IMG/VR virus record: IMGVR_UViG_3300033463_000012 | Length of the DNA stretch: 64,000 nucleotides | DNA from: a virus | Taxonomy: Duplodnaviria > Caudoviricetes | Direction: 5' to 3' (one strand) | Shown: positions 3,157 through 31,094 of the stretch, in pieces | Position numbering within the stretch: position 1 is the first letter of the stretch | Layout of the letters: each line of letters begins with the position of its first letter | Program-made: the position numbers and the translations under genes | The notes under the pieces: generated by a model | Told to the model about the DNA's origin: nothing | Databases searched by the model: none | Seen by the model: the letters and a program-made list of their open reading frames with translations, nothing else

Positions 3157-3909
3157 TTATGATAATGCTTCCATCAATTCATCGAAGTGTTCTTCTATGT
3201 CTTTTCTACTTAATTGATAATTACCTCTGACTCTTCTTCCTACATCAGGAACATGTTTTTCTAGATAATCAACCAGTTTTCCTACTGTTCCATAACCATT
3301 AAGTTCTATGTAAACTGGATACTTGTCCTCTGAAATTTCAAAACTTCTATAACAAGAAGAAGGGCCTCTATGTAACCAATTTATACAAGAACCATGGTCT
3401 CCTCTATATCCATCTGCTATGATACGCACCATTTCTCTATCACTACTATCATCAAAAACATCATACAATGCTTCCAAGAATTTCAATACATACTTTGACT
3501 TTTCTTTCTGCTCAGTCCTGAATCCTTCCCGAAGCATCCGACCACGGAGACGACGGGATTCATTGAATTTTCCTTCTCTGGACATTTTTATATGATTTTC
3601 AGTCCTGATGCTGGAAATTTCATCATCAACAACATATCTTATTGCTTTGAACATTGGTCCGGCTGAAAACACAATATCGAAATTTTCAATATCATAAACA
3701 TCAATATCCAATGAAGCACCTAAATCAATAAGAGGCCTGACTATTTTCGTCAAAGCATCTGTCATATTTATTGGCAGATTAGGAAGATTGGTTTTTACTC
3801 CTTCATCATCATTTCTGCGATGGATTTGAACATATGAACCTTCGACTGGATTCAAATCTTTGTCAAAGGCATCAAATCCTTTTCTGTTTACTGTTAGTCG
3901 TCCAAGCAT
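3157..3909 (-). CDS. Hypothetical two-module protein with central FNESRRLRGRMLREG linker
   Basis: 250-aa ORF with AAGGAG RBS; AT-rich halves joined by a GC-richer linker. Confidence 0.75.
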   Translation of the reverse strand: MLGRLTVNRKGFDAFDKDLNPVEGSYVQIHRRNDDEGVKTNLPNLPINMTDALTKIVRPLIDLGASLDIDVYDIENFDIVFSAGPMFKAIRYVVDDEISSIRTENHIKMSREGKFNESRRLRGRMLREGFRTEQKEKSKYVLKFLEALYDVFDDSSDREMVRIIADGYRGDHGSCINWLHRGPSSCYRSFEISEDKYPVYIELNGYGTVGKLVDYLEKHVPDVGRRVRGNYQLSRKDIEEHFDELMEALS

Positions 3910-3921
3910 TTTTCATTCTCC

Positions 3922-4341
3922 TTATTTTGTCTTTGTCATTATGATTCCATCTTCTTCCGTTTCCTGGACAGCGACGAAACCAAAACTTTCATAGATTTCG
4001 ATCAATTTAGCCATCTCGGTTCCTTTGTCCGGATATGCTCGAAGGATGAACTGTTTGCAATGTTCCCTGTTTTCAATCTCCTTCAAGCCCATTCCGAACA
4101 AGGTCTTTCCGAGACCAATTCCCCGGTATTCCTTGTTTATGTAGAAATACTCGATGTTCGTAACTCTTTCGTCGGGGTCAAATCCTCTCATTATGTCAAA
4201 GTCAAATTCATCGGACAAAGTTTCTTCATATTCGTGCATGATTACTTCAAAATATCCACAGGTATATGACAAATATCCTATCTGTTCACCATCCAAAATG
4301 AACTTCACTTCGTTTTCTGAATAGTCAATTGATATGTTCAT
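3922..4341 (-). CDS. GNAT-family acetyltransferase
   Basis: Motif A YINKEYRGIGLGKTL and C-terminal IYESFGF. Confidence 0.85.
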   Translation of the reverse strand: MNISIDYSENEVKFILDGEQIGYLSYTCGYFEVIMHEYEETLSDEFDFDIMRGFDPDERVTNIEYFYINKEYRGIGLGKTLFGMGLKEIENREHCKQFILRAYPDKGTEMAKLIEIYESFGFVAVQETEEDGIIMTKTK

Positions 4342-4877
4342 TTATTGTCCATTATGATTTGATTGCAACAGAATGTCAATTTCCTGATGATTTTTCCTGG
4401 AGAATTATATGAAAAATCCAAGCCATCTGAACGAACGAAGAATGAGTCCGACATTATCCACGTCTTCAAAATGTCGAAGTCACCGGAATTCGTATATCCT
4501 TTCGGAGACAAAACCGAAATCCTGATGTCTCCTATACAAGCCGATGACCAATAACGATGAATGCCATATTGGTCAATGTTCCTTATTTCCAATTCATTCA
4601 CCAATTCCGAAACCTTCCAATCCTTGGTTTCCTCCATGGTGATCGTGAATTCGTAGCCATCGTTTTCCTTCATCACAGGACGGGAGAATGGACGACCTTG
4701 CACCTGGAATCCGACCTTCTGAAATTCCACAGGTTCCTGAATGGATATGTCCGTGACCATCCAGTTCTTTACATCCACTCCCAGGGTATCAGGAAAATTG
4801 ACGATAAACCAGTTGTTCGGTTGTATCGTCTTTTGATTGAACGCTTCCTGTTCCTTTTGAAGAGGTACCTTGGCCAT
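4338..4877 (-). CDS. Tail tube-like protein (divergent gp19 paralog)
   Basis: Same layout as the two neighbouring tube-like genes (FTITMEE...LDFSYNS...KLTF); same operon as the sheath. Confidence 0.55.
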   Translation of the reverse strand: MAKVPLQKEQEAFNQKTIQPNNWFIVNFPDTLGVDVKNWMVTDISIQEPVEFQKVGFQVQGRPFSRPVMKENDGYEFTITMEETKDWKVSELVNELEIRNIDQYGIHRYWSSACIGDIRISVLSPKGYTNSGDFDILKTWIMSDSFFVRSDGLDFSYNSPGKIIRKLTFCCNQIIMDNK

Positions 4878-16486: not shown

Positions 16487-16510
16487 TTTGGCCAAAAGTT
16501 ATTATATTAT
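16487..16510 (+). promoter_or_regulatory. Early-type phage promoter motif
   Basis: TTTGGCCAAAAGTTATTATATTAT. Confidence 0.8.
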
Positions 16511-16578
16511 TAGAGCCAGGCCAGAGAAGAGTTCGAAAGCCTAGCAAGAACCACCAAGAACCTAGCCAGGAGGCACCT

Positions 16579-17430
16579 ATGAACAACACCGAAATCAAGA
16601 TCAGCACCTCTGAAGTTCCCGCCATCATCGGCGTCGACACCCACAAGACCGCCGTCAACGTCTGGGAAGAAAAGACCGGGAAGGTCACTCCCACCGAAAC
16701 CACGGAAGCCATGGAAATCGGCTCCGCCCTCAAGGAAGTCGCCAAGCGGGTCTGGGAAGTCAAGACCGGCAAGATCGTCAAGCCCGGTGTCCAGGTTTCT
16801 TCCGGTCACTCCTGCGGGACGGTCGACGGCATGGTCGACGGCACCCCGGTCATGATTCAGACGACTCCCTTCGCCTGGGACGAAATCCCGGAAGCGGTGA
16901 AGGTCAAGGCCCAGCACTACATGGCCATGGGTGGCTGGTCCTCCATCAAGGTGATCTGCATGGTCTCCGGTTGCGGCAAGGCTATCGAAGAACACGAAAT
17001 CGAAGCCGACGCCTCCGGCAAGGCCATCCTGGAAGCGGTCGAACACTTCGTCGAGAACGTCGAGAAGGAAGTCGCTCCCGCTCCTCAGACCATCGAAGAC
17101 TGCCGCCGAATCTGGTCCAAGTCCGAAGGCGACACGGTCGAAGCCACGGAAGAAATCGCGGCGAAGATCGAGGCCCTCAAGGCCGCCACCGCCAAGGCCA
17201 AGGAAGCCGAGGCCGAAGCGGACGCCCTGAAGAAGTCCATCATGGAAGTCATGGGCTCCGCCGAAACCCTCACGGTGAATGGCAAGAAGGCGATCACCTG
17301 GAAGTCCAACAAGGACTCGGTCAAGACCGACTACAAGGCCCTGGTCGAAGCCCTCGCCCCCTCGGCCGAAGTCCTGGCCGAACACACCTCCACGGTTCCC
17401 GGTGCCCGGGTTTTCCGCATCGCCAAGTAA
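16579..17430 (+). CDS. YqaJ-like viral recombinase/lambda-exonuclease family protein, active site degenerate
   Basis: ISTSEVPAIIGV, VWEEKTG, AMEIGSAL, VDG, QHYM, ITWK, RVFRI; AGGAGG RBS. Confidence 0.8.
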   Translation: MNNTEIKISTSEVPAIIGVDTHKTAVNVWEEKTGKVTPTETTEAMEIGSALKEVAKRVWEVKTGKIVKPGVQVSSGHSCGTVDGMVDGTPVMIQTTPFAWDEIPEAVKVKAQHYMAMGGWSSIKVICMVSGCGKAIEEHEIEADASGKAILEAVEHFVENVEKEVAPAPQTIEDCRRIWSKSEGDTVEATEEIAAKIEALKAATAKAKEAEAEADALKKSIMEVMGSAETLTVNGKKAITWKSNKDSVKTDYKALVEALAPSAEVLAEHTSTVPGARVFRIAK

Positions 17431-17445
17431 GTCGGTTCGGGAAAA

Positions 17446-17476
17446 GGGAAAGGGGCTCGACGAGAGCCCCTTTCTC
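17446..17476 (+). terminator. Rho-independent terminator
   Basis: GAAAGGGGCTC-loop-GAGCCCCTTTC. Confidence 0.8.
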
Positions 17477-17492
17477 ATATTGTCTAAACATT

Positions 17493-17651: not shown

Positions 17652-17674
17652 GGACCAAAAAGTTATTATATTAT
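17652..17674 (+). promoter_or_regulatory. Early-type phage promoter motif
   Basis: GGACCAAAAAGTTATTATATTAT upstream of the ligase. Confidence 0.75.
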
Positions 17675-17706
17675 AAGCAAAGCCCAAAAGAACCACGGAG
17701 GCGCAC

Positions 17707-18999
17707 ATGAACACAAAGGAACTTTTCGAAGCCATCAAGAACACCCCCGGTCACGTGGAAAAGTCCAAGCTCGTCCACGCGAACATGACTGACGGACTCA
17801 AGGGCATCCTCGCCTACACCTACACTCGGGACCGCTACCACGTTCGCTCCACCAACGTGACCATCCCCGCTCCCGGCACGGACGACCTCATCTCCGTTTT
17901 CAACACCTACCCCAAGGCCACTCTGGACGACCTGAAGGCGGGGAAGATTTCCGGCAACGCGGGCATCGCGGCGGTCGAAAAGGTCCTCTCCACACTGGAC
18001 GCCTACAGCCAGCAGGTCTATCTCGCGGTCCTCGATCATAACCTCAAACTCGGGGTTTCTTCCTCGGTCATCAAGGATCTCGGCCTCAACGACAAGTTCG
18101 AAGTCGCGCTCGCCGCCAAGCTGCAGGACCAGAAGGGTTTGGACGTGTTCGACGGCAACTGGTTCGTCTCCCGCAAGCTGGACGGTTGCAGGTGCGTGGC
18201 GGAAGTCAACTGCGAAACTCGGGAAGTGAAGTTCCTTTCTCGCCAGAACAAGGAATTCACCACCCTCTCCAACCTGGTCGAGCCCATCCTCGCCAAGTTC
18301 CCCGAAACCGAAGGTATCTTCTATCTCGACGGGGAAATCTGCCTGGTGGACGACGAAGGAAACGAGGACTTCAAGGGGGTGATCTCCGAAGTCAGGAAGA
18401 AGAATCACACCATGGAACATCCCGCCTACAACGTCTTCGACCTGCTCACCTACGACGAGTTCTGGGGCACGGTGAAGTCTCCCATCTTTTCCCTCCGCCA
18501 CAAGGCCATCATCGATCGCGAGTTCGATGGGGTCTTTGTCCGCCCCCTCAAGCAGGAACGGGTCACCTCGGAAGAACAGTTCCTCAGGTGGAAGGAAGAA
18601 GTCAAGAAGGGTGGCTGGGAAGGCCTGATGCTCCGCAAGGACGCTCCCTATCTCTCGGGTCGCACGAAGGAACTCCTCAAGGTCAAGGACATGCAGGACG
18701 CCGAATACGTGGTCGAAGACGTGGTCCGCGGAGACATCTCCTACGCTGAACCGGGTCGCGGCCAGGTCACCTTCACGGACGTCATCAAGGCGCTCGTCAT
18801 CTCCCACAAGGGGGACAAGGTTCAGGTTGGCTCCGGTCTTTCCAAGGAACAGCGGCTGGAATGGGCGAAGAATCCTGCGGCCATCATCGGCAAGACGATC
18901 ACGGTCCAATACTTCGAAGAAACTCAGGCGAAGGACGGGACCTACTCGCTCCGCTTCCCCATCCTCAAGATTGTCTACGAGAACGGGCGCAACTGCTAG
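17707..18999 (+). CDS. ATP-dependent DNA ligase
   Basis: KLDGCRC, LDGEI, VFDLL, EGLMLRK, LLKVK, VGSG, TVQYFE, SLRFP. Confidence 0.96.
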   Translation: MNTKELFEAIKNTPGHVEKSKLVHANMTDGLKGILAYTYTRDRYHVRSTNVTIPAPGTDDLISVFNTYPKATLDDLKAGKISGNAGIAAVEKVLSTLDAYSQQVYLAVLDHNLKLGVSSSVIKDLGLNDKFEVALAAKLQDQKGLDVFDGNWFVSRKLDGCRCVAEVNCETREVKFLSRQNKEFTTLSNLVEPILAKFPETEGIFYLDGEICLVDDEGNEDFKGVISEVRKKNHTMEHPAYNVFDLLTYDEFWGTVKSPIFSLRHKAIIDREFDGVFVRPLKQERVTSEEQFLRWKEEVKKGGWEGLMLRKDAPYLSGRTKELLKVKDMQDAEYVVEDVVRGDISYAEPGRGQVTFTDVIKALVISHKGDKVQVGSGLSKEQRLEWAKNPAAIIGKTITVQYFEETQAKDGTYSLRFPILKIVYENGRNC

Positions 19000-19006
19000 C
19001 AGAACA

Positions 19007-19087
19007 TAGAGCACCGGGTTGGCCTGAATATCATAACCCAAACAAGCGCATTCTCTTCCCCGATACTTGGGTCAGCTCGGTGCTCTA
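19007..19087 (+). other. 26-bp RNA hairpin rich in G-U pairs
   Basis: 19007-19032 pairs with 19062-19087; five of six deviations are G-U wobbles on the + strand. Confidence 0.65.
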
Positions 19088-19122
19088 AATTCAATACAAG
19101 ACGTTTCTCGCAGGGAGTTGAT

Positions 19123-19533
19123 ATGTTTAATAATTATTACATAAAATGTGAATGCACATGGACGGATGAAGAATTACAAGAAGATCCTATGGGGGGAGAT
19201 GAAGGTCCAAATCAATTCGAAGATGGTGAAACATATTCATTGAGCGATGTCGATGATATGATAAATTCTTTTGTTGAGGATTTTGAAGAACAATGTTGGT
19301 GGGGTGACCGAGATTTTGATGATAGATATATAAGAAAAGATCGAATTTCCATAGAAATTGATAATGATTTGGATAAATTCGCAATAAACTACATAGACGA
19401 AAATGAGGTAGAAAAGACATTAGCGACATTTAACATTAGTGTTCATTTGTATGACAATAATGATACAGACATACGTCCATCGGATTTGAAAGAATTATAT
19501 GGACACATCAAGGGTCAATTAAACAGTCTTTGA
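19123..19533 (+). CDS. Hypothetical acidic, AT-rich protein
   Basis: GGGAG RBS, CTAAAT motif at 19085, own terminator. Confidence 0.75.
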   Translation: MFNNYYIKCECTWTDEELQEDPMGGDEGPNQFEDGETYSLSDVDDMINSFVEDFEEQCWWGDRDFDDRYIRKDRISIEIDNDLDKFAINYIDENEVEKTLATFNISVHLYDNNDTDIRPSDLKELYGHIKGQLNSL

Positions 19534-19552
19534 TCAAGAGTCAATAGATTTC

Positions 19553-19590
19553 AAAAAGTCTAGCTCTCGATCAGGGGGCTAGATTTTTTT
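19553..19590 (+). terminator. Rho-independent terminator
   Basis: AAAAAGTCTAGCTCTC-loop-GGGGGCTAGATTTTTTT. Confidence 0.8.
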
Positions 19591-19613
19591 GCAGATTTCT
19601 TTTCCATTCCACC

Positions 19614-19632
19614 TTGACAATTATTATATTAT
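19614..19632 (+). promoter_or_regulatory. Promoter of the tRNA/ncRNA operon
   Basis: TTGACAA followed by TTATTATATTAT, the 3' half of the early motif. Confidence 0.6.
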
Positions 19633-19686
19633 ACACACGAACCACAGAGTTCTGAAGAAGTTTGAAAGTCAGGTCGGCAGGTTTAA

Positions 19687-19759
19687 TGCTCCATATCTCA
19701 GTAGGCAGAGAGTCCGACTGTTAATCGGAATGTCCCAGGTTCGAACCCTGGTGGAGCAG
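19687..19759 (+). tRNA. tRNA-Asn(GTT), no encoded CCA
   Basis: Cloverleaf; TCCGA-CT GTT AA-TCGGA; GGTTCGAACCC. Confidence 0.93.
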
Positions 19760-19765
19760 TGTTTT

Positions 19766-19856
19766 AGGAGTCGCTCCACCTCGCGGTCTTATAAGCCGTT
19801 GCGCATAATAAATCAGGTGGCGGTGCGCATGTTGGGTTCAATTCCCTCGACTCCTA
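19766..19856 (+). tRNA. Non-canonical tRNA-Ile(TAT)-like RNA, no D-arm, long variable arm
   Basis: Acceptor AGGAGTC/GACTCCT+A; GCGGT-CT TAT AA-GCCGT; TGCGCAT/GTGCGCA arm; GGTTCAATTCC. Confidence 0.7.
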
Positions 19857-19858
19857 TC

Positions 19859-19930
19859 GCACGTGTCGTATAGTGGCTATTACCCCGCCCCTCCAAGGCG
19901 GAGACACCGGTTCAATTCCGGTCACGTGCT
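19859..19930 (+). tRNA. tRNA-Gly(TCC), no encoded CCA
   Basis: GCACGTG/CACGTGC+T; CCGCC-CC TCC AA-GGCGG; ACCGG TTCAATT CCGGT. Confidence 0.93.
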
Positions 19931-19932
19931 TT

Positions 19933-20495
19933 GAAGCAGCTCCACTGAAACTCGGTAGCAAGTGGAGACCCGTTGGAATCGAGTTGTCGTGAACGGGTGG
20001 GTCGTTTTCCGTGACCCAGAATTAGTTGTTGTAAAGGACACCAAAGTCCTATGATTGACGTTCCAAAGCGGATATCTCATAGGGCAACGGAATAAAGTTT
20101 ATGGGCGACCACCGAAAACGTCGATACCATGCCGGAAACACCACATGTTCAGAGCGTGTTGCAACAGCATGGTCCCTTGGCACTTCGTCAAGTAGCACGA
20201 TAGGTGCGAGCCCTTTGATTTTCGTTTCCGTTGAATCTATCTTTTCGGAAACGACCACCGGAAGGCGTTGGGATAGAACAGCGCTTGACAGATCATATTC
20301 GTGGTCCTCCGGTGGAAACCTTTTCACTTCAGACCATCGCTTCGATTTGATTTGAAGTGAACCCATCGGGAGAGGTCCCAGAATCGAAGCAACTGCTCTA
20401 ATTGTTGAGCAAGAATGATAAACCCTCGTCATAGCTTGATAGTGACCTATTTGGCCAATAGCAACCTTTCAAGTGATTGATGAACCGATGGGAAC
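19933..20495 (+). ncRNA. Large highly structured ncRNA (~560 nt), ROOL-like candidate
   Basis: More than 12 stems and 3 loop-mediated pairings fill the gap between two tRNAs; no credible RBS-led ORF. Confidence 0.75.
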
Positions 20496-20501
20496 ACTTT
20501 T

Positions 20502-20592
20502 GGGAGATTGGCCGAGTTGGTCGATGGCGGCGGTCTCGAAAACCGCAGGTGGACCTCAAGTTCATCCGCAGGTTCGAATCCTGCATCTCCCG
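20502..20592 (+). tRNA. tRNA-Ser(CGA), no encoded CCA
   Basis: GGGAGAT/ATCTCCC+G; GCGGT-CT CGA AA-ACCGC; long variable arm. Confidence 0.93.
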
Positions 20593-20602
20593 TTTTGACT
20601 TT

Positions 20603-20706
20603 CTGGAGCGTGGCCGAGTGGATTATGGCGGCTAGTGGGGTGGCAACTCACGGCTTGACGCTCTCGCCGGGCGCCTCGTGGGTTCGAATCCCACCGTTCC
20701 AGACCA
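20603..20706 (+). tRNA. Atypical tRNA-like RNA (8-bp acceptor stem, extended anticodon arm, GGC at loop centre, long variable arm, encoded CCA)
   Basis: CTGGAGCG/CGTTCCAG+A+CCA; Ser-type D arm; GTGGG TTCGAAT CCCAC T arm. Confidence 0.7.
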
Positions 20707-20790
20707 GGGTGAACGCTAACGATGGCGAGTTAGGAGAGACTGTAAATCCCTTGCCTTTCGGCTCAGGAGGTTCGAATCCTTCTTCACCCA
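20707..20790 (+). tRNA. tRNA-Tyr(GTA), no encoded CCA
   Basis: GGGTGAA/TTCACCC+A; CT GTA AA loop; variable arm GCC TTTC GGC. Confidence 0.88.
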
Positions 20791-20902
20791 CTTCGAAGGG
20801 ACAGATTCCGAGGTTTAGCCATTGTCCCCGGAATTTGAAGGATGTTTCTTCCCCGTTTCCTTCCTTCTCACCTTCGAGCACTTTCACAAAAACGGAGAAC
20901 AC

Positions 20903-21262
20903 ATGGACACAGAAAAACTCAAAGCCGACCTGGAACAAAACTTCATTGACCTCTGCAATTCCCGCGGGGTCAAATGGGAAAGGACAGAAGACAAGATCAA
21001 AGTCAATGACGTCCTTTTCCGATTCGAAGTCACGCCGATTTGGAACCAATATCATCACGAATATGACCAGTTCCGATATGTCGCCTACGTACAGATTGGT
21101 GAACAGATTTATTCCTATCTCGGACAAATCATGGATATTGACTGGAAGGGAGATATGATCCCTGTTCCTCGTCAGCATGATTTCGTTCATCGTTTCGTGG
21201 CCGATATTGAATCCAAGTCAGTTTTCGGTGAACGGAACGAAACCCTCGTCAAACTTTCCTAA
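20903..21262 (+). CDS. Hypothetical protein
   Basis: GGAG RBS before MDTEKLK. Confidence 0.75.
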   Translation: MDTEKLKADLEQNFIDLCNSRGVKWERTEDKIKVNDVLFRFEVTPIWNQYHHEYDQFRYVAYVQIGEQIYSYLGQIMDIDWKGDMIPVPRQHDFVHRFVADIESKSVFGERNETLVKLS

Positions 21263-21273
21263 AGGAGAAAGAA

Positions 21274-21573
21274 ATGAAGAAAACCTTGAAGTCAGGGATA
21301 GTCAACTACGACAACGTCCCCATCTACAAGACCTCGGCCAACAAAAAGCATTGGAAGATTGTCCAGGCGTCCAAGTCCGAGTTCCACCTTCTTGAACGCT
21401 CCCGTGGTGGAAGCTATCATCTCATCAAGACATATTCCCGGTATCGTGACGCCCGCAAGTGGCTGAAGGACAACAACCCCGACCTGATCGTCTCCTATGT
21501 TCCTGGGGTGAATTTCTATTGTTCCTCTCAGCTCGAACCTGCCGAAACTCACATGACCTTTGGAGCCAAGTGA
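21274..21573 (+). CDS. Hypothetical protein
   Basis: AAGGAG RBS; phage-like codon use. Confidence 0.75.
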   Translation: MKKTLKSGIVNYDNVPIYKTSANKKHWKIVQASKSEFHLLERSRGGSYHLIKTYSRYRDARKWLKDNNPDLIVSYVPGVNFYCSSQLEPAETHMTFGAK

Positions 21574-29624: not shown

Positions 29625-31094
29625 ATGTTCTACAGGGAACTGTTTGAAGAATTCAAGAAATGGGTGACTTCCTCTCACATGGAGGAAGAGGTCCAGGATG
29701 CCTACGAAACGGGTGACATCAGTGTCTTCGACGAAATCCTCGAACAGTTCGAATTCTTTGTACAACATGAAGTCAAGGCGGATGACATCGTTTCCATGGT
29801 GGACGATTGGTGCGAACTTCAACCACTGACTGAAAGTGCAGAAAGCAGCATTGACTGGAACTCGTTTTCAGACCCGGACATTCAGAAGGGTGTTGATCTG
29901 ATGCGAAAGATAAATGACTGCGGTTACGAGGCATACATAGTCGGTGGCTGTGTTCGTGATATCGTCAATGGAGACAAGGACGTTCATGACATTGACATTG
30001 CCACCAATATGCCAATTTCGGAACTGAAGAGCAAGTTTCACACCGCAGACAATGGCGGGGAGAAACATGGAACAATTCTTGTCGAAAACGACGGAACCAT
30101 GTTCGAGGTGACTCAATTCAGAACCGAAACTGGTTATAGCGACGGACGACATCCTGACAAAGTGGATTGGACAAATTCATTCGAAGCCGACACCAAACGT
30201 CGTGACTTCACCATAAACGCCATGGGCATAGATGCAGATGGAAAGGTGATCGACTACAATGGTGGAATGGACGACCTACGCAACAAAGTGCTTCGTGCAG
30301 TAGGAAATCCCGTTGAACGTTTCACCGAGGACGCCTTGCGTATCATGCGCGCCATGCGTTTTGCCGCTCGATTCGACATGACCATAGCTGAAGAGACAAT
30401 GGAAGGAATAGTCGCTTGCAAGGATCAGCTGAGCAACATTGCAGTGGAACGCATCCAGGCCGAAATGATCAAGACTGCTGAATATGGCTCCAAACAGTTC
30501 GCGATCATTGTTTCCTTGATGAACGACACTGGATGCGGTGAGGTAATCGATCCTTATGGTTTCGTGGATTGGGGCAAGGCGACGGATTTGACCGAAGCAA
30601 GGGCACTGAATCCATTGTTCCCCGAATTGGACAAGGACGTCATAGTCTCCTTGGCCCTGCTGTTCTATGGAAGTGACACAAACAAGGCCATGTCATATTT
30701 CAGATGTTCAGGTGATCAGACCAGGAGCGTTGGATTCATCTATGACAACTTGGAGAATTACAGGCACCTTGAAGATTTGGACCCGATCAATGCCATTAAA
30801 ATTGTGAACAACAAGGACTTTGATCGGCTGCGTGAAGTGAACCATGCGATCGAAGGACATGACAGTGAAAGCGCCAAGGTCATTCCTGTGATCGAAATGC
30901 TGATCGACAAGGCATTGCCGAGATTCAAGGACATTTCCGCGATGATGAAGAAAGCTGGAATAAAATCTGGACAAAACTACGGAATCATCCAGAAGAAAAT
31001 TCAGAACAAAATCTGCAAGATGTATATGGACGGGATTGAACCGACCGATGATCAGATAATGGAAATGCTGATCAAATACAGTGAGCTAAATTAG
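29625..31094 (+). CDS. cca: tRNA nucleotidyltransferase (class II CCA-adding/poly(A) polymerase family) with ~70-aa N-terminal extension
   Basis: AYIVGGCVRD, DIDIAT, EVTQFRTE, RRDFTINAM, RFTEDALRIMRAMRF, ERI. Confidence 0.92.
   Translation: MFYRELFEEFKKWVTSSHMEEEVQDAYETGDISVFDEILEQFEFFVQHEVKADDIVSMVDDWCELQPLTESAESSIDWNSFSDPDIQKGVDLMRKINDCGYEAYIVGGCVRDIVNGDKDVHDIDIATNMPISELKSKFHTADNGGEKHGTILVENDGTMFEVTQFRTETGYSDGRHPDKVDWTNSFEADTKRRDFTINAMGIDADGKVIDYNGGMDDLRNKVLRAVGNPVERFTEDALRIMRAMRFAARFDMTIAEETMEGIVACKDQLSNIAVERIQAEMIKTAEYGSKQFAIIVSLMNDTGCGEVIDPYGFVDWGKATDLTEARALNPLFPELDKDVIVSLALLFYGSDTNKAMSYFRCSGDQTRSVGFIYDNLENYRHLEDLDPINAIKIVNNKDFDRLREVNHAIEGHDSESAKVIPVIEMLIDKALPRFKDISAMMKKAGIKSGQNYGIIQKKIQNKICKMYMDGIEPTDDQIMEMLIKYSELN

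Follow-up and report, generated by a model that had tools for sequence, protein, structure and literature searches.

What occupies the space between tRNA-Gly and tRNA-Ser in the tRNA array of this phage? An earlier note, made from the letters of the DNA, had read it as one ornate non-coding RNA of about 560 nt with three loop-mediated pairings, either a relative of ROOL or a new class, released from the operon by tRNA processing. We consider it probable, at roughly 0.6, that the gap is instead mosaic in nature, with about four non-coding RNA modules (A, X1, X2 and X3) on the tRNA strand that evolve and fold independently of one another. The features of the locus are collected in Table 1.

The window, that is the whole 64,000-nt stretch of DNA analysed, represents the minus strand of an IMG/VR virus record of 132 kb, whose completeness is put at 66%. 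The gene set of the phage includes tail sheath, portal, large terminase, DNA ligase and tRNA nucleotidyltransferase, and is thus that of a large myovirus; its GenBank relatives are distant ones only. The tRNA nucleotidyltransferase could mature the phage tRNAs. Both tRNAs that flank the gap are complete as called by ARAGORN, and no terminator-like site was found within 18900-21400. We note that two odd tRNA-like genes sit in the array. The one before tRNA-Gly is about 79% conserved in a related contig (L042, 2822-2940, minus strand). The other is about 90% identical to positions 4762-4860 of a second relative (L038), where it stands after tRNA-Tyr rather than before it as in the window. Upstream of the array, open frames of 456 and 322 codons (17671-19041 and 16510-17478, both minus strand) run antisense to the ligase and its upstream gene. 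They have codon scores of 0.16 and 0.13, where the sense frames reach 0.56 and 0.55; in a near-identical ENA contig a gene caller picked these antisense frames over the real genes.

Table 1. Position of the gap, its candidate modules and neighbouring features in the window.
Feature	Coordinates	Strand	Description
tRNA-Asn	19687-19759		start of listed array
Odd tRNA-like gene	19765-19856		Rfam tRNA-Sec model 23.7 bits, below cut-off
tRNA-Gly(UCC)	19859-19930	+	5' flank of gap; ARAGORN; Rfam tRNA 57.4 bits
Gap between tRNA-Gly and tRNA-Ser	19931-20500		570 nt
Module A	19937-20103	+	homologs L038 4522-4672, L042 2421-2277(-), L046, L050 ~545-385(-)
A helix H1	19940-19946/19961-19967	+	
A helix H2	19968-19974/19992-19998	+	
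A loop-loop pairing	19949-19956 with 19978-19985	+	
A helix H3	19999-20003/20013-20017	+	alternative to long-range helix of A
A long-range helix	20007-20012/20087-20092	+	alternative to H3
A variable hairpin H4	20046-20054/20077-20085	+	
127-codon open frame	20049-20432	-	antisense to RNA; judged a chance ORF
84-codon open frame	20101-20355	+	
Module X1	20104-20216	+	branched fold; closing stem GGGC 20104-20107/GCCC 20210-20213; hairpin 20126-20132/20167-20173
Module X2	20222-20315	+	9-bp hairpin 20222-20230/20246-20254 and adjacent Y-shaped domain closed by 20255-20262/20308-20315
Module X3	20323-20492	+	11-bp hairpin 20323-20333/20351-20361; domain closed by 20362-20369/20485-20492
tRNA-Ser(CGA)	20501-20593	+	3' flank of gap; ARAGORN; Rfam tRNA 57.5 bits
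Second odd tRNA-like gene	20604-20702		Rfam tRNA 33.4 bits; no ARAGORN call
tRNA-Tyr	20707-20791		end of listed array
tRNA nucleotidyltransferase	29625-31094	+	PHROG 2244, E 8e-60

The pairings themselves are real features of the gap. All eight stems and all three loop pairings proposed earlier were found, each where it had been placed; 8 of the 11 are fully Watson-Crick and 3 contain one G-U. The whole gap (19931-20500) folds with an MFE of -185.2 kcal/mol against a shuffle mean of -161.1, giving z-scores of -3.17 on the plus strand and -3.40 on the minus strand. On the plus strand the signal is uneven and is carried mainly by two segments, 20216-20320 and 20321-20500. The former, containing X2, has a z-score against shuffles of -4.2 to -4.9 and the latter, containing X3, one of -3.2 to -3.5. 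The values for A (19937-20103) and X1 are -1.2 and -0.5 to -0.8. Taken entire, the X1-X3 stretch (X) scores -3.6 on the plus strand versus -2.4 on the minus strand. Random pieces of the same window served as controls: 80 pieces of 105 nt averaged a z of -0.26, with a minimum of -2.58, and 50 pieces of 180 nt averaged -0.53 and reached -3.41 at the lowest, 1/50 being at or below -3. X2 thus lies beyond all 80 of its controls and X3 in the extreme tail, while the energies of A and X1 are unremarkable when taken alone.

Each of the three loop pairings is confined to one module (A, X2 or X3), thus none of them joins modules together. In X2 the segment UCUAUC (20236-20241) of the 15-nt hairpin loop is complementary to GAUAGA (20272-20277), which lies in the inner loop of the Y-shaped domain. 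For X3 the hairpin loop offers GCUUCGAUU (20339-20347), a possible partner of AAUCGAAGC (20382-20390) within the closed domain of that module. In loop-shuffle trials the observed pairing was reached 72 times in 5000 for A and 45 times in 5000 for X3; for X2 the count was 82/5000 against the inner loop and 777/5000 against the whole domain. Each of these pairings, which were picked post hoc, is moderately unlikely by chance. The motif GAATC occurs in all three pairing strands and was considered as a possible signal, but was rejected since it is found 2.2 times per kb in the window and three copies are not unusual.

The proposed kinship with ROOL did not survive the search of known families. With Rfam the window gave tRNAs only at the gathering score, and nothing inside 19931-20500 at E<=10 (19500-21000 searched); this covers ROOL, GOLLD, tmRNA, RNase P and intron models. 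The related contigs L038, L050 and L042 likewise gave tRNAs only at lenient cut-offs (E<=1 or 0.1).

Relatives of the gap are few. No match was found by blastn among 50,697 GenBank phage records. When the gap, A, X and the other modules were compared by nhmmer and blastn with 35 ligase-relative loci and with the whole 132-kb sequence of the phage itself, they found only themselves and the relatives named here. Pattern scans of viral contigs with motifs from A, B, X1, X2 and X3 (B is described below) returned L042 alone or nothing, and a metagenome scan with the A loop returned L046 and L047 only, both of the L042 type. A search anchored on the terminase gave one distant locus, and anchors on the ligase and the downstream gene gave L038 and L039. 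A covariance model of the A core added no homologs. Matches of X in five whole viral records were dismissed as chance, as were two pattern matches in Acidimicrobiia MAGs from the genome-contig scan, which lie inside a GC-rich coding region. In all, A is represented by 4 distinct sequences, X1 and X2 by 2 each and X3 by 1; with so few homologs covariation is weak.

The order of elements in these relatives does not agree with one conserved unit of about 560 nt, as had been supposed. In L038, whose ligase is 90% identical to that of the window in protein and 84% in DNA, the order is Asn, Met, Gly, B, A, Tyr, tRNA-like, Z, Ser, and the match to the gap extends over window 19928-20108 only. L042 (and L046) has the order ...Asn, B, Trp, C, A, Tyr. 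Of the gap modules, L038 and L042 have only the first 150-165 nt or so, module A, which ends exactly at the start of tRNA-Tyr. L050 reads Met, A, X1, an insert of about 80 nt with tRNA-Phe, then X2, where the contig ends. A-X1 is here split from X2, and the last 180 nt or so of the gap are without homolog. The arrays compared show that the candidate modules have been gained, lost and re-ordered separately in related phages. We also observed in L042 a 239-codon ORF (3447-4166, minus strand) on the tRNA strand, within the array between tRNA-Thr and tRNA-Ser; its position recalls that of segB in the T4 array.

Two further modules, absent from the window, are seen in these arrays. Module B (L038 4384-4510; L042 2619-2735, minus strand) is about 115 nt long, has z-scores of -3.4 to -3.5 and is 94% identical between the two contigs; its closing stem carries two compensatory changes. 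The entire space from tRNA-Asn to tRNA-Trp in L042 is taken up by this module, hence such modules can stand alone. Module C (L042 2422-2543, minus strand) is a structured spacer between tRNA-Trp and A with a z-score of -4.1, and no homolog of it was seen.

Module A is present in all four related contigs (L038, L042, L046 and L050). Its core, the 85 nt from 19939 to 20023, is 98-100% identical in L038 and L042 and 92% identical in L050, where the changes are limited to loop 1, one base of loop 2 and one additional U in the H3 loop. Elsewhere divergence is far greater: the ligase DNA of L038 agrees at 84%, and the tRNAs that L042 has in common with the window are 79-82% identical. The loop-loop duplex is possible in 4/4 sequences, at -9.1 to -11.8 kcal/mol, and L050 has no compensatory change in it. 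No covariation was found in the A core, as expected of a core that is nearly invariant. H4 in contrast has strongly diverged, with indels and with U-A to C-G exchanges at two pairs. An invariant core beside a diverged H4 within 150 nt points to constraint rather than recent transfer alone, although exchange between phages could account for part of the identity. The near-invariance of the core suggests a sequence-specific partner, protein or RNA, and not a mere spacer role.

X1 and X2 recur in L050 only, set apart there by the tRNA cassette. The single homolog of X1 (L050 ~384-270, minus strand) has 90% column identity. All 33 consensus pairs are kept (33/33), 2 of them via G-U changes, in this two-sequence consensus. 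Between the window and L050 the stem of the UCGU/ACGA hairpin is kept while 5/8 of its loop positions differ. The homolog of X2 (L050 110-1, minus strand) lies past the tRNA-Phe cassette; 31/31 consensus pairs are kept, 4 via G-U changes, and the loops are invariant. The substitutions in X1 and X2 preserve pairs, and the six that exchange G-U and Watson-Crick pairs are workable on the plus strand only, which indicates an RNA on the tRNA strand. This preservation is modest support, because two-sequence consensus folds are biased toward kept pairs. The cassette itself (L050 115-272, minus strand) consists of the structured insert and a tRNA called Phe, with anticodon AAA, with copies of an 11-nt direct repeat, TTTAATCTTCC, on both sides. 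A single diverged copy of the repeat is present in the window, at the X1/X2 joint. It looks as if the cassette was gained at this joint in L050, or lost from the window lineage. L050 and the window part ways immediately past the closing stem of X2. No homolog of X3 was found in GenBank phages, ligase-relative loci, whole viral records, proteins or the viral-contig pattern searches.

Most likely, the modules would be co-transcribed structured spacer RNAs freed by tRNA processing, by analogy with rnaC and rnaD of phage T4. Release in this manner is plausible given structure on the tRNA strand and a tRNA array free of terminators. The whole array would be transcribed as one precursor. RNase P would cut at the tRNA 5' ends and the usual 3' processing at the 3' ends, freeing the spacer; its own 5' end would be set by 3' processing of tRNA-Gly and its 3' end by RNase P at the 5' end of tRNA-Ser. 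For the window phage this predicts one RNA of about 570 nt, barring additional cuts between modules. In the relatives the pieces would be B alone, B-A, C-A or A-X1-insert. The freed RNAs may then persist as stable structured RNAs, as rnaC and rnaD do.

That the gap encodes a small protein is very unlikely, and this reading has already been refuted for the most part. The candidates are the 127-codon minus frame and the 84-codon plus frame. It is true that 127 open codons is long for 570 nt and that one gene caller took the last 105 codons of the minus frame (P0123); a second gene caller called nothing in the gap. The stop-to-stop frames of the gap matched no family in Pfam or PHROG. Under a codon model trained on 22 long window genes the minus and plus frames score -0.12 and -0.13 bits/codon, lower than every real gene tested (+0.12 to +0.56). 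An exhaustive phmmer search with the 127-codon frame returned the frame itself (P0123), P0124 and P0125, and a search of 90% clusters P0123 only. P0125, a serine-rich repeat protein, was discarded as a match of composition. P0124, the sole remaining homolog, was rejected as a coding one: it is a pseudo-ORF of L050 with an in-frame TGA, running antisense through two tRNA genes. Over 162 aligned bases the minus frame and L050 show 27 differences, distributed 12/6/9 over the codon positions without third-position bias, with 5 synonymous and 15 non-synonymous codons. The minus frame, moreover, overlaps conserved module A. The earlier view of the gap as non-coding thus holds in every frame, the 20049-20432 ORF included.

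A non-coding gap might also be functionless, made of recombination debris between tRNA genes (decayed tRNAs or cassettes) whose hairpins are incidental or only prevent misfolding of the neighbouring tRNAs. The scrambled order of the arrays, with joints at T-arm-like sequence, would fit this, as would the orphan X3, the ordinary stability of A and X1 and the lack of covariation in the A core. We regard it as distinctly improbable nonetheless, for the A core has stayed nearly invariant while its own H4 and the adjacent tRNAs diverged, X2 exceeds all of its controls in stability, and the changes in X2 fall in stems only and preserve pairs. In addition, no tRNA model matches 19931-20500 even at E<=10. 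The other alternative takes the 570 nt or so as a single multi-domain RNA acting as a unit, with A as conserved core and lineage-specific accessory domains, in a new ROOL/GOLLD-like class whose loop complementarities might act between molecules. Several observations speak for it. No cutter between modules is known in the window phage, so that the ~570-nt product is the default; A adjoins other structured sequence in all four relatives and is never solitary; and the order A-X1-X2 is common to the window and L050. GOLLD likewise combines a conserved 3' region with a variable 5' region, and in ROOL and GOLLD, both RNA-only cages, some pairings predicted as tertiary proved to be intermolecular (bioRxiv 10.1101/2024.12.08.627333). 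Perhaps the cassette of L050 entered a once-single A-X1-X2 RNA only recently, in which case separability is no proof of independence in the window. The full-length MFE structure also includes a long-range helix (19969-19976/20485-20492), but two perfect local helices are in competition with it, and L038 and L042 lack its partner. No conserved pairing between modules was found. The appendages of A (B, C, X1...) are wholly different from one relative to another and occur on both sides of it, X2 would be severed by a tRNA gene in L050, and there is no match to a ROOL or GOLLD model. A single RNA therefore appears rather unlikely to us.

What became of the earlier proposal follows from these points: its pairings and the structure on the tRNA strand remain, but the single ROOL-like RNA gives way to modules with local pairings. 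As modelled here, the gap is a real, unannotated set of structured RNA candidates and not one ornate ROOL-like RNA. More tentatively, one may picture a myovirus clade in which cassette-like structured RNAs (A, B, C, X1, X2 and X3) shuffle between tRNA genes. At least A, with its nearly invariant 85-nt core of two kissing hairpins, might then represent a new class of functional RNA, one binding a particular factor of host or phage such as an enzyme that processes or targets tRNAs; or the loop complementarities might let the 570-nt chain associate with itself, like ROOL and GOLLD. We see this extension as possible, though on balance doubtful.

Phage RNAs near tRNA islands can be remarkable, as ROOL and GOLLD are. 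The present locus contributes unannotated candidate RNA families without an Rfam match, and a comparative picture of structured modules that come, go and change places among tRNA genes, with one core kept almost letter for letter. If expressed, the modules, at 90-170 nt, would offer compact new material for studying the role of operon-embedded RNAs. The immediate reach of the family is limited by its rarity (four distinct sequences) and by its origin in uncultured phages.

[quoted passage not shown] The gap is like it in total length, in its phage location beside tRNA genes and in having several candidate pseudoknots or kissing loops. It differs in that no covariance model matches, the full-length architecture is not kept in relatives and each pairing stays within a module of 100-180 nt. 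GOLLD is often >800 nt (bioRxiv 10.1101/2024.12.08.627333). It is also phage-borne, near tRNA islands and built of one conserved part and variable parts, but the gap is shorter, matches no GOLLD model, and in one relative has a tRNA gene between variable parts and core. The resemblance to ROOL and GOLLD is one of place and size only. Phage tmRNA offers another comparison. Two distant ligase relatives, L012 (5037-5391) and L019 (447-799), carry a tmRNA gene beside tRNA-Ile(UAU), with tags GTNQLALAA and GVNQLALAA. Like these, the gap would hold non-tRNA RNA of 350-560 nt embedded among phage tRNA genes, but it has no T arm, acceptor pairing or tag reading frame, and neither ARAGORN nor Rfam found a tmRNA in the window. 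A group I/II intron was rejected, as there is no Rfam match and the flanking tRNAs are both complete.

Stable non-tRNA RNAs of the T4 tRNA operon have been known for decades, without known function. T4 rnaC (species 1, 139 nt) and rnaD (species 2, 119 nt) adjoin tRNA-Arg in that operon. The modules resemble them as non-coding RNA candidates of 100-170 nt on the tRNA strand of a myovirus tRNA operon, separated from a neighbouring tRNA gene by a few bases, and such an arrangement suggests that they are presumably freed by tRNA processing. The same placement is seen here where A adjoins tRNA-Tyr (L038 and L042) and where B fills the Asn-Trp gap (L042). There are differences: T4 rnaC folds with a tRNA-like T arm, which the gap modules lack, and here up to four modules are chained and are shuffled between relatives. 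The A-core model found no match in T4 68000-76000. As analogues and not homologs, rnaC and rnaD of T4 are the closest comparison for the genomic logic of the gap.
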